Shown piece after piece: positions 4,546-24,000 of a stretch of 24,000 nt of DNA. How positions within the stretch are numbered: the first letter of the stretch is position 1; each line of letters begins with the position of its first letter. Origin of the DNA: Symplocastrum torsivum CPER-KK1 (lineage in GTDB: Bacteria > Cyanobacteriota > Cyanobacteriia > Cyanobacteriales > Coleofasciculaceae); assembly GCA_019358875.1 (NCBI GenBank), contig JAHHIF010000024.1:73662-97661 (forward strand), in the 5' to 3' direction. The notes beneath the pieces were generated by a model. It was not told the DNA's origin. It searched no databases and worked only from the letters and a program-made list of their open reading frames with translations. A program made the position numbers and the translations under genes.

Positions 4546-5316
4546 TTGACTAAAGTGATTGCACTGTTCAATCAGGCGGGTGGTGTGGGGAAGTCTACGA
4601 CCACCCAAAATCTCGGCTATCACCTTTTCCTACGTCGCCACCGCGTCCTGGTGGTAGATATGGACCCCCAAGCTTCACTAACTTCGTTCATGGGACTAGA
4701 GCCAGCGGACTTGAAGGAGACGATTTACACGGCTTTAGTGCCTGAAGAGGATGAAGTCGATAAGCCGCTCCCTATCCATAAGGATTTACACGGCATAGAC
4801 TTAGCGCCAGCTAACCTGCTGCTAGCCAATGCCGAACAAGAGTTAATCTTTGCGGAACAGCGAGAGTTCCGACTGAAAGATATTCTTGCACCTCGGCTTT
4901 TTGACTATGATTTTATTTTGGTCGATTGTCCTCCCAGTTTGGGAATCTTGAGCCAAATTAGCTTAGTTGCCTCTACTCATGTTCTGGTTCCCGTCCAATG
5001 TCAGTACAAAGCCTTGCTCGGTACAGAATCGTTGCTGAAGACCGTGTACAAGGTAAAAAGGCGGCTTAATACGGAATTGACGTTTGCGGGTTTCCTGCCC
5101 ACCTTGTATTCCGCCAGTAATTCGCTAGACCGAAGGACGTTGCAAATTGTTCAAGAACAACTAGCATCTGTTGGACCCATTCTGCCGACCGTTCCACGGG
5201 CAACGGCTTTGGCTGAGGCGACGGAGTACGGAATGCCCTTAGCGCTCTGCCCCAAGAAGAATCCTGAGATTTTGCAAATTTTTGACCGAATCGCACAGGT
5301 CGTTGAATCGCTATGA
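4546..5316 (+). CDS. parA: ParA-family partition ATPase (deviant Walker A lacking the signature lysine)
   Basis: TTG start is preceded by AGGAG (4532..4536, 9-nt spacer). Motifs present are the P-loop FNQAGGVGKST, DMDPQ, and Walker B ILVDCPPSLG. The usual KGGVGK is AGGVGK here (codon GCG at 4576..4578). Confidence 0.92.
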   Translation: MTKVIALFNQAGGVGKSTTTQNLGYHLFLRRHRVLVVDMDPQASLTSFMGLEPADLKETIYTALVPEEDEVDKPLPIHKDLHGIDLAPANLLLANAEQELIFAEQREFRLKDILAPRLFDYDFILVDCPPSLGILSQISLVASTHVLVPVQCQYKALLGTESLLKTVYKVKRRLNTELTFAGFLPTLYSASNSLDRRTLQIVQEQLASVGPILPTVPRATALAEATEYGMPLALCPKKNPEILQIFDRIAQVVESL

Positions 5317-7018: not shown

Positions 7019-8428
7019 ATGCAGCGAAAAGCTGACAGCAACTCTCTACTAGATACGGAAACCGGATACACAATGTCTTTTTCACGCCGTCAGTTTTTGA
7101 CCTTAGCAGGTGCGGGAGCCGCAACTGCCGTTATTGCATCTCCCTTAAAAGCGCTTTATGCCAGACAAGCCCGTGGTTTATTAACTCATGGCGGAGGTTA
7201 TGGTCCGCTCATAGAAGACCCCAATGGCTTATTAGATTTACCACAAGGATTTCAGTATCGAGCCTTCTCTCGCACAGGGGAGATTATGAGCGATGGTAAT
7301 CCAGTACCAGGCGATCATGATGGGATGGCGGCTTTTGCTGGTTCCAACAATACTGTTATTCTCGTCCGCAATCACGAACTCAGCCCAAGTGAAACTAACA
7401 AGCCAGGACTGATTGCACCAGCTCCTAAGCAGTATGACTCCAACAATCGAGGTGGCACCACTACCCTAATTGTTGGACCCAATCGTGAACTAATTAGCCA
7501 TTATGCTTCGTTAGCCGGTACCAATCGCAACTGTGCTGGCGGACCAACGCCTTGGGGTTCGTGGATTAGCTGTGAAGAAACGACTGAAACTCCCACCTCA
7601 CATCCCATAAATTTAAAGGCACACGGCTATAACTTTGAAGTTCCGGCTAATGCATCGGGACTTGTTGACCCCGTCCCCCTCATAGCAATGGGTCGCTTCA
7701 ATCATGAAGCAATTGCCGTAGACCCGGAAACTGGAATTGTTTATCAAACTGAAGATAGAGGGGATGGTCTGTTCTATCGCTTTATTCCAAACCAGCCGGG
7801 TAATCTCAAAGCTGGAGGTATTCTTCAAGCTCTGAAGATTAAGGGCAAATCTGGGGTAAACACTAACAACAGAACGAGCCAAACTATCCCAGTCGGTCAG
7901 CCGATGGAAGTTGAATGGGTCACCATCGATAATCCCAACCCTCCTACAGATACCGTGCGAGTTGAAGGCTTCGGTAAAGGAGCGGCTCAATTCTCGCGCG
8001 GTGAGGGGATATGGTATGGCAATGGTGAACTTTACTTTACCTGTACCGATGGAGGTCTGGGTGGGATTGGTGCTGGCAATCGTGGTGCTGGTCAGGTCTG
8101 GCGCTATGTTCCCGGTCAAACGGCTCAACAGGGCGGTACGCTTGAACTGTTCGTTGAACCTAACGATGCCGACATCTTAGATGCGCCTGATAACATTGTC
8201 GTCGCTCCTACTGGCGATTTATTTCTGTGTGAAGATGGTCCGAATACGCAATATGTAGTGGGAGTGAATGCCTTGGGTCAACTCTATCAGTTCGCTCGCA
8301 ACGCGCTTAATGATAGCGAGTTCTGTGGAGTTTGCTTCTCACCTAACGGTCAAACAATGTTTCTCAATATTCAAAACCCTGGCATTACCTTTGCGATTTG
8401 GGGACCTTGGCCGTCACAGCGACCCTAG
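7019..8428 (+). CDS. phoX: PhoX-family (DUF839) alkaline phosphatase, Tat-exported
   Basis: Twin-arginine signal MSFSRRQFLTLAGAGAATAVIASPLKALYA begins at the internal ATG 7073, which is the likely true start. Family motifs are present: GYGPL..DPNGLLDLPQGFQY, HDGMAAF, LVRNHE, NCAGGPTPWGSWISCEE, HGYNFEV, GRFNHEA.AVDP, YQTEDRGDG.FYRF. Confidence 0.85.
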   Translation: MQRKADSNSLLDTETGYTMSFSRRQFLTLAGAGAATAVIASPLKALYARQARGLLTHGGGYGPLIEDPNGLLDLPQGFQYRAFSRTGEIMSDGNPVPGDHDGMAAFAGSNNTVILVRNHELSPSETNKPGLIAPAPKQYDSNNRGGTTTLIVGPNRELISHYASLAGTNRNCAGGPTPWGSWISCEETTETPTSHPINLKAHGYNFEVPANASGLVDPVPLIAMGRFNHEAIAVDPETGIVYQTEDRGDGLFYRFIPNQPGNLKAGGILQALKIKGKSGVNTNNRTSQTIPVGQPMEVEWVTIDNPNPPTDTVRVEGFGKGAAQFSRGEGIWYGNGELYFTCTDGGLGGIGAGNRGAGQVWRYVPGQTAQQGGTLELFVEPNDADILDAPDNIVVAPTGDLFLCEDGPNTQYVVGVNALGQLYQFARNALNDSEFCGVCFSPNGQTMFLNIQNPGITFAIWGPWPSQRP

Positions 8429-8566: not shown

Positions 8567-9289
8567 CTACTCCACAGATTTGTGTTTACGCCTGAATGCT
8601 GAACCTGCCCCCAAACCTCCCAAAACCAAGACCCCAAATACAGAAGTCGGTTCAGGAACGCTGATGCGGACATTATCAACACCAATAAACGCAACACTAT
8701 CTTCGTCAGTACCAGAGGCAGACAGCCGGAGTTCGTCAAACTCAAAGCCTCTGATAGAAAGCGTCTGCTGTCGCAAATCGCTGCTTCCAACTACCTCAAA
8801 GTCCGAGAGCGAGGCGGAAGTGCTAGCAACGAGACTACCTCCCTGCAACGCTTCTAGGGTCAGGATAGTGTTGGAGGGATAAAAAAGCTGGCTGAACAAA
8901 TCGAGACTGACCGAACTTTCCACATCCCCGGTGGTAATCCCCATTGAGCTAAAGCGTCCAAATGCCGCGTCAGCACCAGAGGCAAAGCTGCCAAAGGTGA
9001 GGTAATTGGGAGGAGAAAACGATGAACCAAGGTAATCTTCTGTCGTACTGTCGATAGAAAACGTGTAAGGAAGTAGCTCGGAAAGACCCTGATCCAAATC
9101 AAAGAAAGTCACTCCGGCATCGGTCAGCGTCGTTCCAGAAAAACCTTCAGAGAAGTTGTCAAAGGTCGCACTGGCTGCAAATGTGGGAGAAGTCAGCATT
9201 ACAGAAGACAAAACTCCCAGCACAGACAATCCGGTGTAGAGAGAAGGTTTAACTGTGCTTTTGTTTCTGAGCATGAATAATTTCCTCAT
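8567..9289 (-). CDS. PEP-CTERM sorting-domain protein (secreted, exosortase substrate type)
   Basis: N-terminal signal peptide (LSVLGVLSSVMLTSPTFAASA). The C-terminal PEP-CTERM motif is VPEPTSVFGVLVLGGLGAGSAFRRKHK, i.e. PEP plus a hydrophobic helix plus a basic tail. The start is only 23 bp downstream of the phoD stop on the same strand. Confidence 0.85.
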   Translation of the reverse strand: MRKLFMLRNKSTVKPSLYTGLSVLGVLSSVMLTSPTFAASATFDNFSEGFSGTTLTDAGVTFFDLDQGLSELLPYTFSIDSTTEDYLGSSFSPPNYLTFGSFASGADAAFGRFSSMGITTGDVESSVSLDLFSQLFYPSNTILTLEALQGGSLVASTSASLSDFEVVGSSDLRQQTLSIRGFEFDELRLSASGTDEDSVAFIGVDNVRISVPEPTSVFGVLVLGGLGAGSAFRRKHKSVE

Positions 9290-9312: not shown

Positions 9313-10914
9313 CTAGAGCTGTTCAGCACCCGGCTGCCCGTTTTCAACAACAAACGAAGCGAGAGTGCTAATAGTCGCATTCGGGTCAAGGATGGTCGAA
9401 ACCACACGGTAGTCACTCTGCCAGCGCTCGCGAGTGAGGTGACAGCGCACGTAACCCCGAAATGCCCCATCAAAGAACTTGGTGTGAGGATTGTCCGGCA
9501 AAGCCGCCGTTACTGGGGCAATAAACGCCGTTGCGAAGTCAGACGTTATTGAAGTTCCCACAAACTCAGTAGCGACAGTAGGCGAGGCGGGGTTATCGAA
9601 GTCGGCTTTTAGGTCATGTACCCAATTAGAGTGGATATCACCTGTAATTACAACGGGATTGCTGGGTTGCCGCTGTTGGATGAAATCTAAAAGGCGATCG
9701 CGTGCCGCCACATAGCCATCCCACTGATCCATGTTGAACACCTCTGCGCCAGGGCGAGCATCAAAGTCGTACTGCGCCATCATCGTCTGCTGTGCAATGA
9801 CATTCCAGCGTGCATTAGAGTTGTCCAACCCTTGAAACAACCACTGCTCCTGCTCGGAACCCATCATGGTTTGGGATGGCTCTAATGCTCCTGGGCAGCG
9901 TGGCTTAAGGTTGTCATCACAAGGTTGATCGCTGCGGTACTGACGGGTGTCGAGGATGTGAAAATCCGCTAAGTTACCAAAAGCAAGACGCCGATAGAGC
10001 TGCATATTGGGACCATTAGGCAGCGCGAAACTTCGCAAGGGCATGTGTTCGTAGTAAGCTTGGTAAGCATTAGCTCGCCGCTGCGTAAACTCCTGCTGGC
10101 TTTGGTTTTCCTCAGGAATCAAGTTCGCGTAGTTGTTCTCGACTTCATGGTCATCCCAGGTGACGCTCCAAGGGAACGCCGCATGAGCCGCTTGTAAATC
10201 TGGGTCAGTTTTGTACAGGGCGTAGCGATTGCGGTAATCGTCCAAGCTAGTGATTTCGGGACTATTATGGACGCGAATATTACCCGCTTCTGATTGGTAC
10301 TCATTAGGACCATACTCGTAGATGTAGTCGCCCAAGTGAACGACCAAATCGAGGTTTTCCTGAGCCATGTATTTGTACGCCGTGAAATACCCGTGTTCGT
10401 ACATTTGGCAGGAAGCAAAGGCAAAGTTGAGTTGGTTTGTCGGAGTACCTAAAGCGGGAGCGGTGCGCGTCCTACCAATCGGGCTGACTTCGTTACCTGC
10501 CTTGAACTGATACCAGTACCATTGAGCCGACTTGAGTCCACCAAGAACGACGCGGATTGAGTGAGCGAGTTCTGGGGTTGCCATTGCCGTCCCTCGCAGC
10601 ACGACATTTCTCATATTCGGGTCGGTGGCAAGCTGCCACTGTACCGGGACGTTCACTCCTGGCATACCACCGTTTCCATTTAAGGGTTCAGGTGCAAGCC
10701 GTGTCCACAACACGATGCTATCGGGAAGCGGATCACCTGAAGCTATACCGAGTTTGAAGGGATAGTCAGAAAACCTAGGTTGAGCAACAACTCGACGACT
10801 AGGCCATTGAGACGCGAGTACAATCCCTGTTAAAGCTCCAGCGCTCACCAGCAAGCTTCGCCGTCTCAGCCGAGTTGAAAGTAAGCGCTCAAAATGAAAG
10901 CGCTCCATAAGCAC
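9313..10914 (-). CDS. phoD: PhoD-family alkaline phosphatase / phosphodiesterase, Tat-exported
   Basis: N-terminus is Tat-like: RLRRRSLLVSAGALTGIVLA. The PhoD N-domain motif FKLGIASGDPLPDSIVLWTRLAP is present. Metallophosphatase motifs are present: VHLGDYIYEY, WDDHEVENNY, ITGDIHSNW. GAGGGG lies upstream of the ATG. Confidence 0.92.
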   Translation of the reverse strand: MLMERFHFERLLSTRLRRRSLLVSAGALTGIVLASQWPSRRVVAQPRFSDYPFKLGIASGDPLPDSIVLWTRLAPEPLNGNGGMPGVNVPVQWQLATDPNMRNVVLRGTAMATPELAHSIRVVLGGLKSAQWYWYQFKAGNEVSPIGRTRTAPALGTPTNQLNFAFASCQMYEHGYFTAYKYMAQENLDLVVHLGDYIYEYGPNEYQSEAGNIRVHNSPEITSLDDYRNRYALYKTDPDLQAAHAAFPWSVTWDDHEVENNYANLIPEENQSQQEFTQRRANAYQAYYEHMPLRSFALPNGPNMQLYRRLAFGNLADFHILDTRQYRSDQPCDDNLKPRCPGALEPSQTMMGSEQEQWLFQGLDNSNARWNVIAQQTMMAQYDFDARPGAEVFNMDQWDGYVAARDRLLDFIQQRQPSNPVVITGDIHSNWVHDLKADFDNPASPTVATEFVGTSITSDFATAFIAPVTAALPDNPHTKFFDGAFRGYVRCHLTRERWQSDYRVVSTILDPNATISTLASFVVENGQPGAEQL

Positions 10915-12219: not shown

Positions 12220-12884
12220 AGGTCAAGTCTTTTCCTTACTTTTGTCGGAAACTCTACAGGTTTAAGCGCGATCAAGCAGAGGCAAACTAAGGATTCAAAA
12301 CAGAATCCAAATCTGTCTCAACAAAGATAGGCAAAACAGTCCTAAGCCAAGTCAGCCGCTTCTTGTAACAACCAGCAGAAGAATGACCCAAATGTGCAAA
12401 ATATGTATCTAGAAGCAAGCCGATCTAGAAGCTTGCTAGCTTTCTAAGATTAAACGCGGTTTTTGTTAACAACCGTTTACATAGTTTTTAATTTAGCGAT
12501 AAGAACTTCTTGAAACTTTTAACCAAAACGTATTTGCGTATATTGATGTATTTTCATACTTTAGATAGAGGCTTTATACAACATGAATTCAACGTAACAC
12601 CAAAAGCCTTGACATCTCGTAGTGATTTGTAGCCTGAATCCCTTATTATTTCGTTGATTGGCTTCTTCCCTTGAACTTACGTTGGTATAAGTAAGGCTCA
12701 AGATAAAAATGAGAAATTAAGTCTCCTATCTTAAGAAAAATAACGGTTTCAGTTTTTTTTACTAAAAGCTTCTGTCCTCTTAATAAAACTTTAAGTTCTT
12801 TCAATGAAGTTCCCCACATCTATTAGTTTTGATTTCTAAATAAGTAGTGAATTCCTTATTGAGAAGGATATTTGTTTAAGTCCC

Positions 12885-12925
12885 GTTAATCACAAATTAG
12901 TAGAATAATTACTTATACTTAACCA
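12885..12925 (+). promoter_or_regulatory. Candidate Pho-box-like array upstream of exbB
   Basis: Four 8-mers sit on an exact 11-bp register: GTTAATCA (12885), ATTAGTAG, AATTACTT and CTTAACCA (12918). The outer two fit PyTTAAPyPy(T/A) at 7/8 and 8/8; the inner two are poor. CTTAACCA lies 72 bp upstream of the exbB ATG. The background is AT-rich, so a chance occurrence is plausible. Confidence 0.3.
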
Positions 12926-12996
12926 GTTCCGCTGGGTAAGTCCGATAAGCTAGCGTGGAAAAGCCTGATTCAGCCTAGCAAGCCCTTACCTTAGAT

Positions 12997-13680
12997 ATGT
13001 CCAGAATCCTTGATTTGATTGTCTCAGGTGGCCCGGTAATGATACCCATTGTCGGGCTGTCTATTGCGACCTTTGCCTGCGCGTTTGAGCGGGGTTTGTT
13101 TTGGTTCCAGTTGTTGAGACAAGAAGATAGAATTGTCCACGATGTGCTGGATGCGGCACGGGTTGACCTAGATAAAGCTGCTGCTATTGCCTCTCAAGCG
13201 AAGGCACTCCCGATTGGTCGCTACCTACTAGCACCATTAAAGCTCAAGAACCCTACCCCTGAAACCTTTCATCTAGCATTAGAAGCCTCTGGTGACAAAG
13301 AGTTCGTCCGAATGCACAAGGGAGATAAACTTCTAGAAAGTGTGGTTGGCATTGCACCCTTACTGGGTTTGTTGGGTACCGTAACAGGTTTAATTGTCAC
13401 ATTCAATAACCTCAACATTGGCGGTGGTGGTGCTAGTGAGAGTGCAACTAAGGCAGCGGCTGGTATTGGTGAAGCTCTAATCACGACAGCCAGTGGTATG
13501 GTTGTGGCAATCATTGCTTTGTCATTTTTCCGAATTTTCGTTACCTTACAATCGCAGCAAATAGATTATTTTTCGGAAGTTGGTAGCGAATTAGAATTAA
13601 TCTACCGACAAACTTGGTACGAACCCTCTGCTTATAACCAAACGCTCTCTAAGATTGACCGTTCGTTAGCTGATTATTAA
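12997..13680 (+). CDS. exbB: MotA/TolQ/ExbB-family proton-channel protein
   Basis: An N-terminal TM helix is followed by a cytoplasmic segment, then the family core GIAPLLGLLGTVTGLI..F and EALITTASGMVVAI. Confidence 0.9.
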   Translation: MSRILDLIVSGGPVMIPIVGLSIATFACAFERGLFWFQLLRQEDRIVHDVLDAARVDLDKAAAIASQAKALPIGRYLLAPLKLKNPTPETFHLALEASGDKEFVRMHKGDKLLESVVGIAPLLGLLGTVTGLIVTFNNLNIGGGGASESATKAAAGIGEALITTASGMVVAIIALSFFRIFVTLQSQQIDYFSEVGSELELIYRQTWYEPSAYNQTLSKIDRSLADY

Positions 13681-13728
13681 GTTTTTAGAGTAAATTGAAT
13701 CCTAAAAAGCTAGAATCCCAACTTAAAA

Positions 13729-14142
13729 ATGCGCTTCAAATCTAAGCAGAAAAGCTCACAGATGCCAGAAATTAACCTGGTGCCAATGATGGATGTCATT
13801 ATGACAATTTTGACATTCTTCATCATTGTGTCCATGACTTTAACGAACCAGCAGAATGCGGTTAATGTGACTCTACCTAGCGCCGACAAGGGACTCAGCG
13901 AACAGAAAATACCCGATCCACTGGTTGTGAGTATTAACCAGCAAGGCAAGCTTTTTCTAGGGAAGCAACAGATTACTGAAGCTCAATTAGCTCAACCAAT
14001 GCAAGCTTATTTGCAGCAACACCCAGAAGGAGCAGTGGTTTTAAATGCAGACCGCAAACTACCTTACGAAGAGGTTGTGAAGGTTCTAGGAAAAATGCGG
14101 GATATCGGAGGCGATCGTGTTTCTCTGGCAATTGAAAGCTAA
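13729..14142 (+). CDS. exbD: ExbD/TolR-family biopolymer transport protein
   Basis: Characteristic N-terminus PEINLVPMMDVIMTILTFFII, including the conserved TM Asp. The periplasmic domain follows with motifs such as VVLNADRKLPYEEVVKVLGKMRDIG. Confidence 0.9.
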   Translation: MRFKSKQKSSQMPEINLVPMMDVIMTILTFFIIVSMTLTNQQNAVNVTLPSADKGLSEQKIPDPLVVSINQQGKLFLGKQQITEAQLAQPMQAYLQQHPEGAVVLNADRKLPYEEVVKVLGKMRDIGGDRVSLAIES

Positions 14143-14229
14143 CTGAGCAATTACCTTCTGTACCGTGCTTTGCACGATGCCGCTGAACGTGTGGGGAAGC
14201 GATTAGACCTGTTGTTGGAGAGAGAGCGC

Positions 14230-15063
14230 TTAGCCAAAGCGTCCTTCAACGTAGTCACGGGTACGGGGATGACTAGCGGCTGTAAAAATCCGAGGTGTTG
14301 GACCAAATTCAACAATTTGACCGATGCGACTCTCATCCGTACTGAAGAAGGCTGTGTAGTCTGAGACTCTGGATGCCTGTTGCATGTTGTGGGTGACAAT
14401 GGCAATTGTGAGTTCCTCACGAAGTGTCTGGAGTAGCTCTTCAATCTTCATGGTTGCGATCGGGTCAAGAGCTGAACAGGGTTCATCCATTAACAAAACC
14501 TTGGGCTTTACTGCCAAAGCACGGGCAATACACAGCCGCTGTTGTTGACCGCCTGAAAGTCCATGCGCGGATTGATTTAACTTGTCTTTTACTTCTTCCC
14601 AAAGCGCTGCACTACGAATGGCTGATTCTACAATTTCATCTAATTTGGTTTTAGAGTGGTGACCAGTCAGCCTCACACCGTAGGCAACATTATCGTAAAT
14701 GCTCATTGAGAAGGGATTAGGCTTCTGGAATACCATCCCAATGTGACGGCGTAGCCGATTGAGATTAACGCGGCGATTATAGATATCTTGACCAAAAAAT
14801 TCTACCGAGCCTTCAACTCGTACCTTTCCCTCTAGTTCTCCAATCCGGTTGAGAGCTTTGATGAAGGTGGATTTACCACAACCAGAGGGACCAATAATCG
14901 CAGTAACTTGCTTTTGGTAAATGTCTAATGAGATGGATTCTATTGCTTTTTGACTACCGTAGTAGAAGCTTAAGTTTTTGACGCGCAGAGCTGGGGTTAA
15001 GGCTTCATCGTTTTTGGTGGAATCGGGAGTGTTCACCCTTGAATCTTTACTAGTAGGTTGCAT
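14230..15063 (-). CDS. pstB: Phosphate ABC transporter ATP-binding protein PstB
   Basis: Walker A GPSGCGKST, ABC signature LSGGQQQRLCIARA, Walker B LLMDEPCSALD, and the PstB-typical tail RTRDYVEGRFG. It starts 3 nt after the pstA stop. Confidence 0.97.
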   Translation of the reverse strand: MQPTSKDSRVNTPDSTKNDEALTPALRVKNLSFYYGSQKAIESISLDIYQKQVTAIIGPSGCGKSTFIKALNRIGELEGKVRVEGSVEFFGQDIYNRRVNLNRLRRHIGMVFQKPNPFSMSIYDNVAYGVRLTGHHSKTKLDEIVESAIRSAALWEEVKDKLNQSAHGLSGGQQQRLCIARALAVKPKVLLMDEPCSALDPIATMKIEELLQTLREELTIAIVTHNMQQASRVSDYTAFFSTDESRIGQIVEFGPTPRIFTAASHPRTRDYVEGRFG

Positions 15064-15066
15064 AAG

Positions 15067-16053
15067 TTAGCGAAGTTTTAAGCGTTTACGAGTAACTTGG
15101 CGAGACAAAATGCTGCTGAGCAGAACGAGTCCAATCAGAGCAACCGAAGCTGCCCAGGCTAGTTGATTTTGATTTTTGAAGGGTGAACTGGCATACCCGT
15201 AAATTAATACTGATAACGAAGGGGTTGGTGTGAATAATCCTTGAGGCCAAAACTGACTGGATAGGGCGGTGAAGATGAGTGGGGCAGTTTCACCCGCCGC
15301 ACGAGAAACGGCGAGTAAGACACCGGTGGTGATTCCAGGAATGGCTGAAGTGACGACAATGCGGAAGATGGTTTGGAAGCGTCCACCTCCCAAAGCGGCT
15401 GAGGCGAGGCGGTGGTGAGTGGGAACTAGTTTTAAGGCTTCTTCTGTGCTTAGGGCAATAATCGGTAACATGATGACACCGAGAGCAAAGCCACCTGCTA
15501 GAGCAGAAAATCCACCCGTTTGGATTTTGAAGTTTAAAAAGGGAATGGGAATAGTAATTTTGGTGAGGACGATGACAGCGTAGGCGAATACCCCCACAAC
15601 AATGGAAGGAACGCTGCTCAGAATGATGGTGAAAAAGCGAATTACATTTGCGATCGCAGAATTTTTACCAATTTCCGCCAAGAAAATACCCGTCATGACA
15701 CCAAACGGAACACTAAACAGGCAAGCAACCCCCACCATCATTAGAGTTCCAACAATTGCATTAGCAAAGCCATTAGCTCTGTCTTCCACCCCCTCTGGTG
15801 CTGGTAGAGAAACCAGCACTTCCGGTAGCGAAACGGGTACTCCGAAAAGCCGCACCTCGTGCAACTTCATCAGCGCTGGGAAACCTTGACGCAGAATCTC
15901 AAATAAAATCGCAAATATGGGCACTAGTGCTGCTGCTGTAAGAACGAAGGCAAGAACGGTCATCCCACCGCTAAACAACATTCGAGCAACTGGCAGTGGT
16001 TGATAAAGTTCTTGGTCTAAGGATTCGTCAAAAATAGGTTGGTCAGTCGTCAT
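15067..16053 (-). CDS. pstA: Phosphate ABC transporter permease PstA
   Basis: Polytopic membrane protein with the ABC permease EAA-like loop (REALKLVP...AALGGG). It is the second permease in the pstS-C-A-B order. Confidence 0.9.
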   Translation of the reverse strand: MTTDQPIFDESLDQELYQPLPVARMLFSGGMTVLAFVLTAAALVPIFAILFEILRQGFPALMKLHEVRLFGVPVSLPEVLVSLPAPEGVEDRANGFANAIVGTLMMVGVACLFSVPFGVMTGIFLAEIGKNSAIANVIRFFTIILSSVPSIVVGVFAYAVIVLTKITIPIPFLNFKIQTGGFSALAGGFALGVIMLPIIALSTEEALKLVPTHHRLASAALGGGRFQTIFRIVVTSAIPGITTGVLLAVSRAAGETAPLIFTALSSQFWPQGLFTPTPSLSVLIYGYASSPFKNQNQLAWAASVALIGLVLLSSILSRQVTRKRLKLR

Positions 16054-16090
16054 TATTCATATCCTTTGGGAAACGAAAAGCACTCACCTA

Positions 16091-17140
16091 TTAGCCAAGC
16101 AGCGCCCCTCCACCATCACTCGCTGAGGATAAAGGACTAATTTCGCTTTTCTTACCTCGTCTGCCAATGAGCTGAACCATCACTACGGCAATAATGTTAA
16201 CGACGAGTGTTATGACAAACAAAATCAGGGCTAAGTACATCAATGCCCCGATGTGCAATTTATCCAAAGCTTCTGCAAATTGGTTTGCCAAAATGGCGGG
16301 AATGGTGTAACCAGGAGCTAATACTGAGGGACTGATTTGGATGGAGTTACCAATCACCATCGTTACTGCCATTGTTTCCCCCAAGGCACGCCCCAAGGCG
16401 AGAATAATCGCTCCGACAATTCCTGAACTCCCAGCAGGCAACAAAACCTTCCCAATCGTTTCCCAGCGTGTCGCGCCTAGAGACATGGAAGCACTCCGTA
16501 AATCTTGAGGAATCACGAGTAAGACTTCCCGACTAATAGCAGCAACTGTTGGGAGAATCATAATCGCTAGCACAATTCCAGCAACCAGCATTCCGGGACC
16601 ATAGGGTTCAAAGCTAAACAGAGGAAACCAACCCAACTTGGTAAATAACCACTGCTGGAAGGGTAAAAGGAAGGGAATCAAAACAAAAATTCCCCATAAA
16701 CCAATGATTACGCTGGGGATAGCGGCGATGAGTTCAACCAAGAATCCCAAAGGCGATCGCACCCAGATCGGTAAAAAATCTTCACTGGTAACAATCGCGA
16801 CAGCGAGTCCCGTAGGAACGGCTAGCAAAAGAGCGAGGGCAGAACTCACCAGCGTCCCATAGATGAAAGGCAACGCCCCAAACTTCTCTTGCCCAACATT
16901 CCACGTTTGACTCCATAAAAAACTCAGACCAAATTCTTCAACCGCTGGTCGAGCTTCTTTAAAAATTACCCACGATAACCAGAACAGTACCCCTGCTGTT
17001 GCTACAGTCATCAACCATACCAATCCAGTAAATCCGTACTCTAGCCAGGTTCCTTCCCCTTTCGTGCTAGTAAGGTCTGTGTCAAGGTCTACTATGGGTA
17101 GCTGAGTCCGGTTATCAGCTTGCTTAGAGAAATCAGTCAT
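16091..17140 (-). CDS. pstC: Phosphate ABC transporter permease PstC
   Basis: Polytopic membrane protein containing SREVLLVIPQDLRSASMSLGATRWE, the permease EAA loop. It is the first permease after pstS. Confidence 0.9.
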   Translation of the reverse strand: MTDFSKQADNRTQLPIVDLDTDLTSTKGEGTWLEYGFTGLVWLMTVATAGVLFWLSWVIFKEARPAVEEFGLSFLWSQTWNVGQEKFGALPFIYGTLVSSALALLLAVPTGLAVAIVTSEDFLPIWVRSPLGFLVELIAAIPSVIIGLWGIFVLIPFLLPFQQWLFTKLGWFPLFSFEPYGPGMLVAGIVLAIMILPTVAAISREVLLVIPQDLRSASMSLGATRWETIGKVLLPAGSSGIVGAIILALGRALGETMAVTMVIGNSIQISPSVLAPGYTIPAILANQFAEALDKLHIGALMYLALILFVITLVVNIIAVVMVQLIGRRGKKSEISPLSSASDGGGALLG

Positions 17141-17362
17141 CGATCGTTTTACACTACTTCCTTACAGAGCCATACAGAAGATGATGAGAGGACATCCCCG
17201 TACTGGAGATGCCCCCACAACTAAAGCCAAAGTTCAATCGAGGGTTTAGAAGAGAGAAAAGGTAAAAGGATGTTAGATGCTCCCTTTTGTGCCTTAACCC
17301 TTCTCCTTTCGCCCAGAAAGTTCCAAAACTTACCTGTAAAAAGTGAGCTTATCGACACACTT

Positions 17363-18409
17363 CTATCGCGTTACGGCAACGTCACTAGATACAGCTTGGC
17401 TAGCGCGAGTCGCTACGTTTTGTGGAATCCGGGTATAGCCTAAGTCGTCATTTAGTTCTTGACCTTTGGTGAGAATCCACGAGACCATCCGTTTAACCGC
17501 ATCGGCTTTGGCAGGGTCTTCATACTGCTTCTTGATCAGAAGCCAGGTTACACCTGCAATTGGGTAGCCATCAGCGGGGTCTTCTGAACCACTAACGTTG
17601 AATTCGGGGGTAAAGGTTACAGCAGATAAGGCTTTATTGGCTTCAGCCAGGGTTGGAGCAACGTACCGACCCGCCTTGTTCTGCACTAGTGCTTGCACGA
17701 GGTTGTTCTGAGCCGCATAGGCAGATTCTACATAACCGATAGAGCCTGCTGTTTGTTTGACGAGAGCAGCGACACCAGGGTTTCCTTTACCACTAAGGGG
17801 ATTTGCTAACCAAGTTGGAGCTGAACCTGGCTCAATCTTGCTCTTGAATGTTGAACTAATAGCACCCAAATGTTTTGTGAAGATGCTGGTGGTGCCGCTA
17901 CCATCTGAACGGACAGCCAGTCGGATTGGTTGATTCGGTAGGTTTACACCCGGGTTATCAGCCGCAATTCTTGCGTCATTCCAGCGGGTAATTTCGCCCA
18001 TAAATATTGCAGGCAATACCGAGCGAGATAGCTTGAGATTAGTGACACCAGGAAGATTGTAAACAACTGAGACAGCTCCACCAGCGGTAGGAACCAAAAT
18101 TACACCCTTGGTCATCTGGTCGCTATCTTCTTTCTTGGGATATGCATCACTACCAGCAAAGTCAACGGTGTTAGCAATGAATTGCTTGATACCGCCGCCG
18201 CTGCCAATTCCTTCATAATTGACCTGAATATTTGCTTCAGTTTTGAAAGCATCAAAATAACGGTCATAAAGGGGCTTGGGGAACGTTGCTCCAGCACCAT
18301 TTAAAGTAACCGTTTGAGCAATCGCCGCACATACAGAGCCGAATGAAAAAGCAATCGTTGCGGCTGAAACTGTAACAGCACGACGAACAGCTATCGAAGA
18401 GAGAATCAT
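17363..18409 (-). CDS. pstS: Phosphate-binding protein PstS (periplasmic substrate-binding component)
   Basis: Signal peptide, then LNGAGATFPKPLY, the PstS N-terminal phosphate-binding motif. SDGSGTT and GYVE.AYA motifs are also present. It heads the pst operon. Confidence 0.93.
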   Translation of the reverse strand: MILSSIAVRRAVTVSAATIAFSFGSVCAAIAQTVTLNGAGATFPKPLYDRYFDAFKTEANIQVNYEGIGSGGGIKQFIANTVDFAGSDAYPKKEDSDQMTKGVILVPTAGGAVSVVYNLPGVTNLKLSRSVLPAIFMGEITRWNDARIAADNPGVNLPNQPIRLAVRSDGSGTTSIFTKHLGAISSTFKSKIEPGSAPTWLANPLSGKGNPGVAALVKQTAGSIGYVESAYAAQNNLVQALVQNKAGRYVAPTLAEANKALSAVTFTPEFNVSGSEDPADGYPIAGVTWLLIKKQYEDPAKADAVKRMVSWILTKGQELNDDLGYTRIPQNVATRASQAVSSDVAVTR

Positions 18410-18508
18410 ATTGCCTCGTTCTTAAGCAAAGACAGAGCAGTAATTGTGCAATCCATGATTACACTACAACTGGAATAACTAAGCCAAGGTAAGGATAAAA
18501 ATAATTTC

Positions 18509-18538
18509 AGATTAAACGTATATTAATAAATGGTTAAA
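18509..18538 (-). promoter_or_regulatory. Pho box (SphR/PhoB-type) upstream of pstS
   Basis: Read on the minus strand it is TTTAACCA ttt ATTAATAT acg TTTAATCT. That is three 8-bp direct repeats separated by 3 bp, with TTAA cores at 18512, 18523 and 18534 (exact 11-bp spacing). Repeats 1 and 3 match PyTTAAPyPy(T/A) at 8/8 and repeat 2 at 6/8. It is oriented toward pstS and lies 100-130 bp upstream of its ATG. Confidence 0.65.
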
Positions 18539-18842
18539 TCACAAAAAGTAATTAGTTCAATGATTTTTTCGTTAGTATTTTTAGTAACTGCAAAAACATC
18601 CATAACTTTAGTAATATCAAGTAAATTTAGTTTTTAAACCTACCAACGGATAGAGTTAGGATTATTGACTCTATAAGTACAAATTTTAGAGTCTTTGAGG
18701 TTTTCTCAAGGCTCACGAGTAATTAAAACCAGCAATTTTTTAGCTCAACGCCTAACGAGCAACAGCGGTATTGAGTAGCGATCGCTTTTTTATTTGTCTA
18801 AATCGTGCCATCCTCAGGAGCATTCTTGCAAGAGCCAAACCG

Positions 18843-19973
18843 ATGAACCAGTCTTACTTCTTGAAAAACTTGCCTGCTCCCTTACAGCCTTGGGTACGTC
18901 CGATGCTGCTAGTCTCAATTACTTTGCACGGATTATTGCTGGCTATTCCAATGCCACCCAAGCCAAAGCCTGAAGCCCCTAAAAAAGAACCAGAAAAGGT
19001 AAAAATTACCCAAATTCCAATAACACCACCAGCGCCAAAACCCTCTGTTCGTCCCTCACCGCGACCAACTCCTCTAGTACGTCAGTCACCTCGCCCAAAG
19101 CCTACACCGATTCGCCGACCATCAACGATACCCCCCATAACTCAAGCCAGGACTATTCCTCGACCTCAGCAGCAGCCACAGCAAACACCATCACCAACTG
19201 CACAGCAGACACCACCGCCAACACCAGAGCAAACGCCCTCCCCAGCACCAGACTCAACCCCAATTTCTGAGGTACAAAATCCCTTTGCTGATTTTCCCTT
19301 CCCCAATAACGCTGAGATTGGTTCATTAGGCTTACTGTCAGGAGAAACAGACAAATCGGCTCGAAATACAGCCGATGGCATTGACCAAGTCGTTTCTTTT
19401 TATAACAGCCAACTGCCACAAAAGAAATTTACTTCTTCATCTGTTACTGATGAACCTGAACTCAAAGTTTATCAGGTGAATAAAGATGGTGGTGAACGTC
19501 AATACCTCCATTTGATTTCCAAAGAAGGAAAGACAGTAATCGTGCTTGCCTCGCAGCCGATACCAAAAGAAGATTTAAAGAGTTTAAAAGATGCAGAAGC
19601 CCGAAGCCCTGAAGAAATCGCCTTTTATGATATCGTTAAGCAACTAGAAAATGATGAAGAATTAGCTTTAGCAGCTGTTGAGCCTGGAGATAGTACTAAG
19701 TTTCCTGAACCTGAGAAATTTAATGACACTAATAAGTTTGAGTTCCGAAGTAAAACGGTGTCATTTAAGCCAATGTCGCCTCAGGAACTTTTTGCCCATG
19801 TTGAAGCTAGCCTCACAGCAAATGGATTTACACAGATTTCTCAGGAAGGTAATTATGGCGGCACTAATGTCCTTACTTACAAAGTGACGCAAGGGAGTTT
19901 TTCCAGATACCTGTACTTTGTACCGACTAACGATAATCGAACAGTAATTATTTTGTCAAAGGATTCACCGTAA
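18843..19973 (+). CDS. Membrane-anchored proline-rich protein with TonB-like N-terminus and an unassigned C-terminal region
   Basis: The likely start is ATG 18843 (MNQSYFLKNLP); the ORF is open from TTG 18771. The TM helix LLVSITLHGLLLAIP carries the S-x-x-x-H-G motif of the TonB anchor (E. coli LLSVCIHG). A roughly 105-aa Pro/Lys/Glu/Gln-rich spacer follows (PPKPKPEAPKKEPEK...PRPKPTP...). The C-terminal ~230 aa lacks the TonB_C hallmark (YP...G.EG.V) and looks like two related alpha/beta units. Confidence 0.7.
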   Translation: MNQSYFLKNLPAPLQPWVRPMLLVSITLHGLLLAIPMPPKPKPEAPKKEPEKVKITQIPITPPAPKPSVRPSPRPTPLVRQSPRPKPTPIRRPSTIPPITQARTIPRPQQQPQQTPSPTAQQTPPPTPEQTPSPAPDSTPISEVQNPFADFPFPNNAEIGSLGLLSGETDKSARNTADGIDQVVSFYNSQLPQKKFTSSSVTDEPELKVYQVNKDGGERQYLHLISKEGKTVIVLASQPIPKEDLKSLKDAEARSPEEIAFYDIVKQLENDEELALAAVEPGDSTKFPEPEKFNDTNKFEFRSKTVSFKPMSPQELFAHVEASLTANGFTQISQEGNYGGTNVLTYKVTQGSFSRYLYFVPTNDNRTVIILSKDSP

Positions 19974-20069: not shown

Positions 20070-20077
20070 GAAATTTT
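20070..20077. repeat. Target-site duplication (left copy) of the ISL3 element
   Basis: GAAATTTT lies immediately outside IRL. An identical 8-mer lies at 21514..21521, immediately outside IRR. Confidence 0.85.
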
Positions 20078-20103
20078 GGCTCTTCAGTAGCTAATATGCC
20101 AAA
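20078..20103 (+). repeat. ISL3 left terminal inverted repeat
   Basis: GGCTCTTCAGTAGCTAATATGCCAAA compared with the reverse complement of 21488..21513, GGCTCTTCAGTAACCAGTATGCTAAA. The first 12 nt are identical and 22/26 match overall. Confidence 0.85.
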
Positions 20104-20239
20104 TCAATAGTTGTGAAAGCCAAGAAATATAAATAAATCTAGCAAATAGTTGGTAGAGTTATTGCCAGAATTGACACAGGGGGTTCATTGGGTATTAACT
20201 ATAAGCCGAAGCCAGAGCTTTTAGGTGCATTGAACAGCC

Positions 20240-21487
20240 ATGAGGACGAAAAAGGATATAAAGGTTTTAACAAAGCTATTGAATATAGAGGGAATAAAAG
20301 TCATCTCACATCACCAGCATGAGGGGATTGGAATAATTTTACAGGTGGAACGGATTGGGAAGGAAAGTAGCTGTCCACGTTGTGGAACAAGAAGCCACAG
20401 ATTACATCAAAATCATCGATACCTAGTAAAAGATTTACCTTGGGGAGAGACTTTCATATATTTAGAAATTAACAGACGACAGTTTAAATGTAAAAAATGT
20501 GTCAAGCCATTTAGTGAAGAGTTAGAGTTTGTCAGAAAAAGAAGAACCTATACGAAACGGCTAGCCAAGCAAATAATCCAAGAAGTTTTAGAGAACGATA
20601 TCCACAGCATAGCGAAAAAAGGGTTGGTGACAACAGAAGAAATAGAAAGGATGTTAAAAGACGCATCGAAAGAATTCTTGAAAGCCAAACCCAGCGAGGT
20701 GAAGAGATTAGGGATTGATGAAATAGCTCTAATTAAAGGGAAAGGGAATTACTGTGCAGTATTAATAGATTTAGATAAGTCTAAGCTAATTGGGATGCTG
20801 AATGGAAGGACACAAGAAGAAATCAGGGAAGTGCTGACGGGATGGGGGAAAGAGGTATTAGAGAAAATAGAAGAAGTAAGTATAGATTTGTGGAAAGGTT
20901 ACAAAAATGTCGTGATAGAGCTGATGCCAAATGTACAAGTGGTCGCCGACAGATTTCATGTAATGGCACAAATAAATAAGGAATTAGACACCCAAAGGAA
21001 GCGAGAAAAGAGACAAGCGGAAGACTTGATTAAAAAAGCAAAAACGTCAGAAGAGAAAGCAGTTCAAGAGAAAGCTTTAGAAGGATTGAAGAAAAGTAAA
21101 TATGTGTTATTGAAGAATGAATCAGACCTAAATGAAGAGCAAAAAGCTAAACTCGTTCAAGTTAAAGATGTATCTCCTACTCTTAAGAGTATGCATGAAT
21201 TAAAAGAGAAAATCAGACAGATTTTCGAGCAGGTTAATCATTGGTTAGCCGGTTTATTTAAACTGGGAGTATGGCTATCAGAAGCCAAAAAATATTTCCC
21301 CGATAGTCAGAACACTATTATTCGTTGGCTGGATGAGATTATTGCTTACTTCGATCATAAGACTACGAGTGGTGTTGTCGAAGGTATTAATAATAAGCTT
21401 AAGTTGATTAAACGCTCTGCCTACGGGTTTAGAAATTTTGAAAACTTCCGAGTTAGATGTTTGCTTAATTGGCAGTTTAATTGTTAG
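20240..21487 (+). CDS. ISL3-family transposase
   Basis: N-terminal zinc-finger region CPRCG...HQNHRYLVKDLPWGE...FKCKKC (zf-ISL3 type). The DDE domain has GIDEIALIKG, DLWKGY, ADRFHV and the C-terminal GVVEGINNKLKLIKRSAYGFRNFENF. Confidence 0.95.
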   Translation: MRTKKDIKVLTKLLNIEGIKVISHHQHEGIGIILQVERIGKESSCPRCGTRSHRLHQNHRYLVKDLPWGETFIYLEINRRQFKCKKCVKPFSEELEFVRKRRTYTKRLAKQIIQEVLENDIHSIAKKGLVTTEEIERMLKDASKEFLKAKPSEVKRLGIDEIALIKGKGNYCAVLIDLDKSKLIGMLNGRTQEEIREVLTGWGKEVLEKIEEVSIDLWKGYKNVVIELMPNVQVVADRFHVMAQINKELDTQRKREKRQAEDLIKKAKTSEEKAVQEKALEGLKKSKYVLLKNESDLNEEQKAKLVQVKDVSPTLKSMHELKEKIRQIFEQVNHWLAGLFKLGVWLSEAKKYFPDSQNTIIRWLDEIIAYFDHKTTSGVVEGINNKLKLIKRSAYGFRNFENFRVRCLLNWQFNC

Positions 21488-21513
21488 TTTAGCATACTGG
21501 TTACTGAAGAGCC
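21488..21513 (-). repeat. ISL3 right terminal inverted repeat
   Basis: See the left IR. It starts directly after the transposase stop codon (21485..21487). Confidence 0.85.
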
Positions 21514-21521
21514 GAAATTTT
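21514..21521. repeat. Target-site duplication (right copy) of the ISL3 element
   Basis: GAAATTTT, identical to 20070..20077. Confidence 0.85.
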
Positions 21522-21998: not shown

Positions 21999-24000
21999 CT
22001 AAACAGTGACGAAGTTACTAGCGCTAAGGCTACTCGCTTGTACCCAGATCAAAGAGGCTAAAAGTTCGTTACCTGCACTGATGAGAGTAGCGCCATCAGC
22101 TTGAGCGATCGCTAAATCGTTAAAGGTCAAGCCACCCGATAGACCAATTTGAGTCTGACCAAGTTGGACGTTATTGATCGTATCAACGCCATTACCTCTT
22201 GCAAGAACAATTGTGTCCTGACCACCTCCCAGCCAAATCGTGTCATTGCCAGTGCCACCATTAATTTCATCGTTGCCAGAACCTGAGTAGATGATGTCGT
22301 CACCAGCACTACCGAACACAGTATTGTTGCCCTCGCTGGCGTAGATGGTGTCATTACCCGTCCCGCCAGTAACGGTATCAGCTTGCGAACCACCGTAGAT
22401 CAGATCGTCGCCACTATCACCAAAGAGCGTGTTTACACCTTCGCCGCCGAAGATTTGGTCATTGCCAGTACCCCCCTGGATCGTGTCGTTCGCGTTATCT
22501 CCATATAGGCTGTCGTTCGCGTCACCCCCAACGAGGGGTTCGGCTCCAGCGATTGTATCAACATCAAGTGCAAAGCTTAAGACTTGGGTAAATTGAGTGC
22601 TACTGAAATTGTTGTCAGCAACAACAACCAAGGTTTGCCGCCCATCTTCCAACTGAGGACCAAGAGTGATGCCCTCAAGATTATCCAGTGTTATCCCTAA
22701 ATCGCCGAAATCAAGTAGCAAGCGCTTCTGGGCAGCATCGACATCGACTCCGTTCACGCTATCCAGGTCGTTGATATCCGTAGCTCCCAAGATGCTCGTC
22801 TGGTAAAGCTTGACGCTGTTGCCCACACCAGTGGAGAACGAGCGCTCCAGAGTCAGGAACGTACCATTATTATCCAGAGCCAGTATCTCAACTAGACCAT
22901 TGGTACTGAAGCTACCTGCCGGATTGGGCGCATCAGCAACGGGGTTAGTGATGTACAAGAATTCACCAACCGCTTCCCCAGTTTGCAAGTCGTACTGAAC
23001 AATTCGGGACGGACTGCCGTTGGTCAGTGTCGCCGCAGGTCCATCTTGCACTAGAGCATTCTCTGTTGCGGTAAAGAGAAAGCGTTGATTAGGAGTAATT
23101 GTCAGACTTTCAAAGGCTAGATTGTTACGGATACCGGGGTCGTTCGTGCCTATCCCTGTAGGGTTAAACCTATCCGGTACGGGCAACTCGTTAAACTGCT
23201 GCCCTTGGAGCGAGAACTCATTAATAAAAGGGTCGATCAACCGACTCGCAGACCGTTCCCCTTCCGAGGAGATAAACAACGTCCCGCGCTCCGAGAAAGC
23301 AATTCCCTCTGGGTCGAGACTGTTTGGCACAAATGGCTGACCGTTTTCATCCGTGATGGTGGTCACGTCTTGGAATTGGACATCCCCGTTGTCCAGCCTT
23401 CCATCACTAAGGTCAATGCTGAGGGTGTAGAATCGCGCCGGATTAAACTGACTCCGGTCATCCGAGATGCTGTAGAAGACATTGTTGAAGCGATCATAAG
23501 CAATGCCGGATAAACCGCCCACCTGAGTGCCCTCAAAGGTGAACCCCGTTGGGAAGGTTACTTCTCCGATAAATTCCACATTACTAACAGTCTGGCGGTT
23601 GAAATCGGACGTGGAAGCCTCAGACGTGACATCGACCCGCACCAAGCGATGGTCAGAACTGGGGAAGCCCCCAGGAACGTTGGGGTTGAATGTACCGACT
23701 AGGGGGAACTGGGGTTCAGTACTTTCTGGCCAGAATACTGCCGCGTCGGTAATCTCCAGGTTTTGTGAGGGCAGAACGTAATCGACTCGCAGATTTCCCG
23801 GAGCGCCATCGGCAAAGTCAGCCGTATCAAAAGCTGGGTCGGTGATGTGGCTAGCGTTGGCACCTCCCTGCAACGCTGCCTGTTCGGGTCCTCCCTCACT
23901 GCTTGGGGTGATGCTGGTGTTGATTAGAGGATTATCGAGCAGTTGCCGGATGGCATTATCAACGCTGTCTCCATCGTTTGGGTCAGCATTCTGGTCGCCC
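21999..24000 (-). CDS. Secreted multidomain phosphoesterase: EEP-family domain (partial) + phytase-like esterase domain + RTX calcium-binding repeats; 5' end outside window
   Basis: The frame stays open upstream of the track's TTG at 23873 all the way to position 24000 ([25 protein letters not shown]...), so the gene is 5'-truncated by the window. VDYVLPS...[11 protein letters not shown] is the C-terminal signature of endonuclease/exonuclease/phosphatase domains. [13 protein letters not shown]...ISDDRS begins an 'esterase-like activity of phytase' domain. Twelve GGxGxDxUx nonapeptides follow, then a cyanobacterial RTX-type tail ending SNFVTV. Confidence 0.88.
22206..22529 (-). repeat. RTX (hemolysin-type calcium-binding) nonapeptide array, 12 units
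   Basis: [108 protein letters not shown]. Confidence 0.9.

Follow-up and report, generated by a model that had tools for sequence, protein, structure and literature searches.

An ExbB-ExbD motor and an unnamed TonB/TolA-like adaptor family linked to the Pst phosphate importer in cyanobacteria: a candidate Pho-controlled energy transducer

The (S/A)-x3-H motif in the transmembrane helix of TonB and TolA couples each of these proteins to its motor, and TolA combines its SxxxH anchor with a long periplasm-spanning domain. Here, a comparable arrangement is described from a 24,000-nucleotide stretch of Symplocastrum torsivum CPER-KK1 (Coleofasciculaceae; contig JAHHIF010000024.1, positions 73,662 to 97,661), which is referred to as the window and whose source genome is a metagenome-assembled genome (MAG). 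In this stretch an exbB-exbD pair and the gene of a putative TonB/TolA-like anchor protein, hereafter the adaptor, are placed around pstSCAB, the operon of the ATP-binding cassette (ABC) importer of phosphate. The region is probably a rearranged copy of a conserved module composed of pstSCAB, exbB-exbD and the adaptor gene, working as a Pho-controlled transducer of the proton motive force (PMF) that would aid Pst phosphate acquisition through a target in the envelope.

Several described systems come close to this arrangement. PhoE and OprP/OprO are likewise outer-membrane channels induced by phosphate limitation within Pho regulons, but they are passive diffusion channels without a PMF motor, whereas the porins found embedded in pst operons in the present work are of the SLH+OprB type. 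ExbB-ExbD sets of Synechocystis are reportedly implicated in inorganic iron uptake; the likeness of the Synechocystis ExbBD/Slr1908 work lies in an inorganic nutrient entering through porins and not through TonB-dependent receptors, while the work differs in that it concerns iron and describes neither an adaptor of the present family nor a linkage to pst. The Synechocystis genes slr0677/slr0678, which may lie next to sphX-pst1, are not listed in the published Synechocystis phosphate-deficiency (-P) regulon table. The nearest functional precedent is ExbB2-ExbD2-TonB4 of Pseudomonas aeruginosa (PA0693-PA0695), which is induced by phosphate starvation and uncharacterised in function, and whose genes adjoin the LapA/Hxc phosphatase secretion genes and the putative outer-membrane porin PA0696 (PMC7035377). 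It resembles the present locus as an additional ExbBD and anchor set beside secreted phosphatase genes, but it is proteobacterial, is controlled by PhoB via the extracytoplasmic function sigma factor VreI and is not adjacent to pstSCAB; moreover, TonB4 is annotated as a TonB protein. That cyanobacterial TonB-like proteins can do more than take up siderophores is shown by SjdR/TonB1, TonB2 and TonB4 of Anabaena, whose functions concern the septal peptidoglycan or the integrity of the outer membrane (PMC8597729, PMC8262864). Unlike the adaptor family, TonB2 and TonB4 are described as having a TonB-box-binding domain as in E. coli TonB, and no phosphate link has been reported for them. Porins are also listed among the members of the Pho regulon (PMC1906773). 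In full-text literature searches, no publication was found that connects either ExbBD or a TonB-like protein with cyanobacterial Pst, in agreement with a previous reading of the window from its sequence alone, which knew of no described ExbBD-dependent step in cyanobacterial phosphate acquisition. The motor is familiar; the adaptor family and the phosphate context are new.

The core of the window comprises the following genes.

12997..13680, plus strand: exbB, proton-channel subunit of the MotA/TolQ/ExbB family (PF01618, E 2.5e-29, 102 bits against a cutoff of 22.9)
13729..14142, plus strand: exbD, ExbD/TolR subunit (PF02472, E 4.6e-29, 101.5 bits against a cutoff of 25.4)
14230..15063, minus strand: pstB (Pfam ABC_tran)
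15067..16053, minus strand: pstA (Pfam BPD_transp_1)
16091..17140, minus strand: pstC (Pfam BPD_transp_1)
17363..18409, minus strand: pstS (Pfam PBP_like_2; TIGR00975, 328 bits against a cutoff of 205)
18843..19973, plus strand: gene of the predicted TonB/TolA-like anchor protein (adaptor), starting at the ATG used by homologues

The sequence-only reading had placed exbB-exbD at 12997..14142, converging on pstB, and a complete pstSCAB operon at 18409..14230, and both coordinates and identities were borne out by Pfam and TIGR00975: the PstS equivalog scores above its cutoff, and the operon, on the minus strand (14230..18409), also encodes the ATPase and both permeases. Its central proposal, that ExbB, ExbD and an anchor protein form a Pho-linked module, was put forward as a candidate and draws support from conserved linkage and from a Pho-box-class array upstream of exbB. 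With the E. coli type of TonB-ExbB-ExbD the locus shares an ExbB of PF01618, an ExbD of PF02472 with its transmembrane Asp, the clustering of three genes and a third protein in which one N-terminal transmembrane helix bearing S-x3-H is followed by a short beta-strand and a long spacer rich in Pro, Lys and Glu. It differs in the adaptor family, which has tandem helix-plus-four-strand modules instead of TonB_C, and in its surroundings, since the module stands with pstSCAB and a Pho-box-class promoter and not with iron or B12 genes, and no TonB-dependent receptor is found nearby.

The linkage was surveyed across cyanobacterial genomes as a test set in advance. The locus scan took one genome per species, with alignment A2 leading to 21 loci on which the window proteins were mapped by tblastn. 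Recurrent linkage to pst was found, and the lack of co-occurrence that would have spoken against the module was not seen: the adaptor gene is paired divergently with pstS in 23 of about 27 lineages, and homologues of just 26-37% identity are still divergent from pstS. In the canonical order, confirmed on annotated contigs, pstBACS and the adaptor gene are transcribed away from each other, and exbD-exbB, on the far side of the adaptor gene, converge on it. Carriers of the cluster include Coleofasciculaceae, Allocoleopsis, Microcoleus, Potamolinea, three Myxacorys species, Phormidium tanganyikae, Leptolyngbya and a Pseudanabaenaceae isolate, among others. Sampling from the ExbB side, which avoids the ascertainment bias of a search seeded with the adaptor, recovered the same cluster, once on a 750-kb and once on a 240-kb contig. 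Furthermore, exbBD adjoins the adaptor gene in 23 of 27 lineages, that is in 20 of those paired with pstS and in loci L011, L012 and L026; as for the remaining three pstS-paired lineages, the contigs of L009 and L029 end too early and the two genes downstream in L030 are not recognisable as exbBD.

The split of the three parts around the importer, as originally described, holds for the window itself, but it is not the usual layout. In the window and in L022-L024, which are closely related to it, and likewise in L019, exbBD is found on the far side of pstB and not past the adaptor gene, and since the canonical order prevails elsewhere, the split arrangement is derived, with the parts still together. 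The window and L022 retain all parts in the rearranged order on a mobile-looking segment. A single JGI sample (3300041964) holds both a canonical copy, L028, on a 240-kb contig with an ExbB 80% identical to that of the window, and the window-like rearranged copy L022, on an 89.6-kb contig; therefore, one organism may carry a canonical and an island copy. In L022, a fragment of a DDE_5 transposase lies between exbD and pstB.

The adaptor reads MLLVSITLHGLLLAIP / ...RPMLLVSITLHGLLLAIPMPPKPKPEAPKKEPEKVKITQIP... at its N-terminus. An S-x-x-x-H-G signature in a single transmembrane helix and a Pro-rich spacer had been noted in it, and both were recovered: S25-x3-H29-G30 (LLVSITLHG) lies within a predicted helix at residues 12-34, preceded by a cytoplasmic KNLPAPLQ..RP segment and followed by a KVKITQ strand and a Pro-rich linker. 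The linker, of about 115 residues (~35-150), abounds in Pro, Lys, Glu and Gln; it is predicted to be disordered, with a predicted local distance difference test score (pLDDT) of ~38-58 in an AlphaFold2 model built on 26 homologues. The C-terminal part (~150-376) is modelled as a tandem pair of helix-plus-four-strand modules, each unit of about 65 residues, with a pLDDT of ~90 in the full model and a mean of 87.6 in a domain-only model. An internal duplication is supported by hhalign of the two halves (96% probability, E 1.5e-9). His29 is invariant in alignment A1, where the homologues range from close to moderately distant, and its conservation is at least 90% in a set of 143 diverse representatives; among 146 parsable members the anchor motif is SxxxH in 117 and AxxxH in 24.

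The description of this protein as a TonB-type anchor is accurate for the N-terminal motif and the layout, and does not extend to the C-terminus. No Pfam match was obtained even at E<=10 and no NCBIfam match (PF27226, precomputed on three adaptor homologues, is an entry absent from the Pfam release scanned and so falls outside this statement), and TonB_C (PF03544 fold) was found in 0 of 129 diverse family members by Pfam scan. Searching the adaptor profile against all PDB sequences gave nothing relevant, neither TonB nor TolA, and Foldseek with the C-terminal model gave no significant neighbour (best E 2.4e-3, template modelling score <0.27), TonB and TolA being absent from the top matches. 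The adaptor therefore stands outside the TonB family, and a TonB-box receptor is not its expected partner. Judging from the model, its C-terminal fold is novel and without an analogue in the PDB. An exhaustive HMMER search returned 661 representatives of 50%-identity clusters at the threshold of E<=1e-3 and 153 at the stricter E<=1e-30, almost all of full length, and the sampled entries are all annotated as 'hypothetical protein'. By these sequence criteria the adaptor represents a new, unnamed family of putative TonB/TolA-like anchors.

Such an architecture could also belong to a membrane-anchored periplasmic scaffold acting alongside PstS or the secreted phosphatases, for instance as their tether or in sensing, the SxxxH motif and the proximity of exbBD being incidental. 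No feature of the locus is conserved more widely than the divergent pairing of the adaptor gene with pstS (23 of ~27 lineages), the C-terminal domain is not TonB-like, and in L029, the most divergent pst-linked locus, a gene of the endonuclease/exonuclease/phosphatase family (L029:6576-7562, minus strand) directly follows the adaptor gene at the canonical site of exbD, all of which would suit a scaffold. However, exbD-exbB is linked to the adaptor in nearly every locus with enough sequence, also where pst is missing, the succession of transmembrane helix, beta-strand and Pro-rich linker matches TonB and TolA, and a passive anchor would hardly account for a mid-helix His that is conserved in 143 diverse representatives. 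A scaffold is consequently regarded as very improbable.

The family also branches within these loci. Several loci have a further adaptor gene in tandem. It encodes a more divergent paralog with the N-terminus MKPxxFLKNLPxPAR..SLxLHG and is located between the first adaptor gene and exbD at the following sites.

L003:11530-12855: tandem adaptor paralog
L005:7513-8490: tandem adaptor paralog
L006:3444-4547: tandem adaptor paralog
L008:6247-7269: tandem adaptor paralog
L025:11653-12894: tandem adaptor paralog
L031:8474-9541: tandem adaptor paralog

The adaptors of the loci without pst (L011, L012 and L026) are of this divergent paralog type. A short relative of 268 aa (L020:9980-10786, plus strand), with an ALVLH anchor, a linker and a single alpha/beta module, is divergent from the gene of a solute-binding protein of the Fe3+/thiamine/2-aminoethylphosphonate class carrying a twin-arginine translocation (TAT) signal (L020:8525-9610, minus strand). 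Branches of the adaptor family may, to judge by these neighbours, pair with the binding proteins of different ABC importers.

The motor proteins retain the residues expected of their families, with the motifs LGTVTGL and GEALITTASG in TM2 and TM3 (transmembrane helices 2 and 3) of ExbB and the conserved transmembrane Asp of ExbD within NLVPMMDVIM. The ExbB sequence is 100% identical to that of a protein of the Symplocastrum torsivum CPER-KK1 MAG, encoded on a 107-kb contig. Against the NCBIfam Exb/Tol models, both proteins remained under all cutoffs, those of the TolQ and ExbB equivalogs included, the best score being TolQ for ExbB (54.7 bits, cutoff 221) and TolR for ExbD (79.2, cutoff 127.3). 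The motor is of the same family as that of TolQ-TolR-TolA, and a Tol-like role in envelope maintenance deserves attention, in which the adaptor would be a TolA analogue acting with ExbBD/TolQR-type proteins, and its adjacency to pst would reflect an inherited gene order or an envelope remodelling under phosphate stress. Besides the sub-threshold scores, this role would account for the SxxxH anchor, which TolA also has, and for the linkage of adaptor and exbBD without pst in L011, L012 and L026. Anabaena TonB2, furthermore, has been proposed to be TolA-like in outer-membrane integrity (PMC8597729). On the other hand, tolB, pal and cpoB are not neighbours here, and none of the annotated loci has a tolB, pal or ybgF-type gene; the adaptor linker is Pro-rich and not a long helix, with no match to TolA domain III by sequence or fold; pstS linkage is kept even at 26-37% adaptor identity; the exbB promoter has a Pho-box-class array; and the module travels with phosphatase genes on a mobile-looking segment. 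A Tol-like role is therefore considered unlikely.

The composition of the motor genes varies among loci. Two genes of the MotA/ExbB family stand in tandem upstream of exbD in L027 (L027:9024-9698 and L027:10001-10690), and two exbD genes are present in L008, L011, L012 and L026; lineages may differ in how their motor is composed or in its stoichiometry. In L019 exbB is fragmented: the exbB-type array is located upstream of a 297-aa Pro/Ser-rich, secreted-looking open reading frame (ORF), which precedes a 70-aa exbB remnant and an intact exbD (L019:313-384, 415-1308, 1453-1665). The remnant represents a pseudogene or, alternatively, an error in the assembly of the MAG.

The regulatory context of the module was assessed with a scan for at least three tandem 8-bp repeats of PyTTAAPyPy(T/A), consensus CTTAACCT, in 11-bp phasing, according to the published definition of the Pho box (PMC1906773). 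The elements concerned are the following.

18509..18538, minus strand: three core repeats of the SphR-type Pho box of pstS, 99 nt upstream of pstS, with a weaker fourth repeat to 18498
12885..12925, plus strand: four-repeat, 11-bp-phased array upstream of exbB, GTTAATCA / ATTAGTAG / AATTACTT / CTTAACCA
12941..12952, plus strand: -10-like block TCCGATAAGCTA, with the hexamer TAAGCT at 12946..12951, 20 nt after the last repeat of the array

The canonical Pho box that had been reported before pstS was readily confirmed. Its sequence, TTTAACCA-ttt-ATTAATAT-acg-TTTAATCT, scores 22/24 (28/32 with four repeats), a value reached by 0 of 500 shuffles, and it is the sole three-repeat box of the window. 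It is kept upstream of pstS in every locus, where all 19 strict three-repeat boxes found in 405 kb are situated.

Upstream of exbB, a perfect CTTAACCA half-site had been pointed out. It is present at 12918..12925, 71 nt before the exbB ATG, and turned out to be not a single site but the promoter-proximal repeat of the conserved four-repeat array, the repeats of which score 7, 4, 5 and 8 of 8, strong at the outside and weak within. When the upstream regions of the different loci were anchored on CTTAACCA, the consensus.TTAAc.. /.TT...tt / ..TTACtT / CTTAACcA was obtained, and the array is in register in all exbB promoters of the orthogroup except those of L011 and L012, where the repeats are degenerate; L026, in which exbBD is not next to pst, retains it. 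The same design was seen in two independently sampled loci, and chance would yield the proximal 8-mer just 0.012-0.023 times per 100 nt. When a profile was made from 11 exbB arrays, it picked up exbB promoters on which it had not been trained, and its repeat portion matches the pstS Pho boxes, in the orientation of pstS, in many loci, with one stray match in 470 kb; therefore, both elements belong to one motif class. SphR may bind at the exbB array as well. The -10-like block, with the consensus TCCGATATGCTA, is highly conserved across loci, L011 and L012 included, and presumably acts as the promoter -10 element. A scan for sigma-70 promoters and terminators gave fewer sites than shuffled sequence.

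Around the adaptor gene, apparent forward-strand arrays were rejected as the reverse complement of the pstS box. A block (GGAG)-CAATCTTGCAAGAAC-AAA stands directly upstream of the adaptor ATG (18810-18842) and is kept at the equivalent position in L002-L010, although the surrounding intergenic DNA cannot be aligned across loci; in some homologues it is annotated as an N-terminal extension. This conservation suggests a possible translational or small RNA target element.

A search for the outer-membrane counterpart of the adaptor gave a divided answer to the suggestion that a receptor or porin be sought elsewhere. A TonB-dependent receptor, already noted as missing from the window, was not found among its larger ORFs, nor within +/-10 kb in the annotated loci. 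A porin gene was instead recovered inside the pst operon of five distant loci, between pstS and pstC, encoding an SLH+OprB protein of 593-626 aa and giving a pstS-porin-pstCAB operon beside the adaptor gene and exbBD.

L016:6677-8479, minus strand: SLH+OprB porin gene
L017:1004-2785, minus strand: SLH+OprB porin gene
L018:6309-8159, minus strand: SLH+OprB porin gene
L019:5380-7260, minus strand: SLH+OprB porin gene
L021:6511-8319, minus strand: SLH+OprB porin gene

These five loci therefore encode an outer-membrane channel, a binding protein, an importer, a motor and an adaptor side by side, an arrangement which makes the SLH-OprB porin a candidate outer-membrane partner of the adaptor. The Synechocystis gene slr1908 encodes a porin of the SLH-OprB type; PhoB binds at its promoter and, when phosphate is deficient, induces it ~7.5-fold (PMC11126600).

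As slr1908 is an iron-selective porin bound and induced by PhoB (PMC11126600), the same gene can be cited in favour of a motor for iron acquisition under phosphate-iron cross-regulation, in which ExbBD would energise inorganic iron uptake via porins, as reported for Synechocystis, and both the Pho-type control and the adjacency to pst would reflect the known control of iron uptake by PhoB under co-limitation. The short adaptor relative of L020, adjoining a binding protein of the Fe3+/thiamine/2-aminoethylphosphonate class, points the same way. Nevertheless, no fut, feo, TonB-dependent receptor or siderophore genes were seen in the window or in the pst-linked loci, and a Fur-box scan upstream of exbB gave nothing above chance. 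The consistent neighbour of the module is pstS, and the embedded porin is inside the pst operon. An iron role appears distinctly unlikely on this balance.

The Pho-controlled transducer of phosphate acquisition is thus the preferred reading, and it starts from observed features, namely the gene identities, the conserved linkage, the cis-array, the conserved residues of motor and anchor, and a novel fold at the C-terminus of the adaptor. The locus would comprise three transcription units, with pstSCAB under the SphR-type Pho box, exbB-exbD under an array of the same class, and the adaptor gene. Under phosphate limitation, SphR would co-induce pst and exbBD, and the ExbB-ExbD complex would use the proton gradient to perform conformational work in the adaptor, held in the inner membrane by the (S/A)-x3-H anchor helix and reaching across the periplasm with its Pro-rich linker. 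The C-terminal domain would then act upon a component of the envelope, which would make the delivery of phosphate to PstS in the periplasm more efficient. A partnership of adaptor and ExbBD, presumably as a physical complex, is indicated by genetic linkage, since the adaptor gene adjoins exbB-exbD(-exbD) even in the absence of pst, its His is conserved and the motor residues are present. As to the target, the most plausible candidate would be a porin of the SLH-OprB type, anchored to peptidoglycan and set in the outer membrane of cyanobacteria, which is poorly permeable.

Several observations weigh against this reading. The adaptor is found as adaptor-exbD-exbD-exbB without pst in L011, L012 and L026, and the relative in L020 has neither pst nor exbBD nearby. 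One clade of the adaptor has Ala in place of the Ser of SxxxH, and BLASTP against E. coli TonB showed no homology of the anchor, so that the resemblance to TonB is one of motif and architecture. In the window alone the exbB array is not significant, with a four-repeat sum of 24/32, a shuffle p of ~0.08 and two weak inner repeats, and its significance comes only from conservation across species. No separate Pho array was detected near the adaptor gene, the only box in its upstream region being that of pstS, 305 nt from the adaptor ATG and facing pstS. The SLH-OprB porin gene occurs in 5 loci only; neither the window nor the Coleofasciculaceae loci have it. Finally, many or most loci are MAG contigs and the lineages are not fully independent, and some of them may therefore be closely related or misbinned.

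The remainder of the window places the module in a wider phosphate-scavenging context.

3386-4360: tyrosine integrase, adjoining the phosphatase genes
4546-6506: ParA/ParB partition genes, adjoining the phosphatase genes
7019..8428, plus strand: phoX, secreted phosphatase (Pfam PhoX, E 2.1e-89; weak TAT-signal match below the Pfam cutoff)
8567..9289, minus strand: gene of a PEP-CTERM protein between phoX and phoD (TIGR02595)
9313..10914, minus strand: phoD, secreted phosphatase (Pfam PhoD, E 4.9e-127)
20071..21520, plus strand: intact insertion sequence of the ISL3 family (DDE_Tnp_ISL3, E 1.4e-66; transposase 20240..21487)
21999..23873, minus strand: phytase-like protein with RTX Ca-binding repeats (Pfam Phytase-like, E 1.1e-94; HemolysinCabind, E 2.6e-32)

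An island of secreted phosphatases had been recognised in the sequence, and Pfam agrees on PhoX, PhoD and the phytase-like RTX protein. The PEP-CTERM product (8567-9289, minus strand) is a protein of 240 aa with the sorting signal and no further recognisable domain. The ISL3 element, with 42-nt terminal inverted repeats (20071-20112 and 21479-21520, 79% complementary), starts about 100 bp past the adaptor stop codon and occupies the site of exbD-exbB in canonical loci. Together, integrase, ParA/ParB and ISL3 suggest that the segment is a plasmid or an integrative element carrying a phosphate-scavenging island; no PLSDB plasmid was matched by megablast of the region or tblastn of the adaptor. 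The intergenic region between a beta-helix protein gene and exbB (12220-12996) is unusually long, at 777 bp, and AT-rich, the array and the -10-like block accounting for its last ~115 bp only, and an Rfam search of it gave no match.

Phosphate often limits the growth of cyanobacteria, and current models of its uptake treat the cyanobacterial outer membrane as passive and begin at PstS. If the proposed reading is true, a conserved, apparently Pho-controlled PMF motor and adaptor beside pst would add an energy-dependent step in the envelope, and the unnamed family of 661 representatives would constitute a third class of ExbBD/TolQR partners beside TonB and TolA. Testable links would also be opened to the ExbBD requirement in porin-mediated inorganic iron uptake of cyanobacteria and to the phosphate-starvation-induced ExbB2-ExbD2-TonB4 of Pseudomonas, and the exbB array could serve as a new phosphate-responsive promoter. 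More tentatively, and as a possibility to which we give well under an even chance, a PMF-driven, TonB-box-independent ExbBD-adaptor transducer may in many cyanobacteria move or gate inorganic phosphate through SLH-OprB porins and thereby feed PstS. If so, this would represent an energised porin pathway for a small anion, and it might likewise account for the requirement for ExbBD where cyanobacteria take up inorganic iron through porins.

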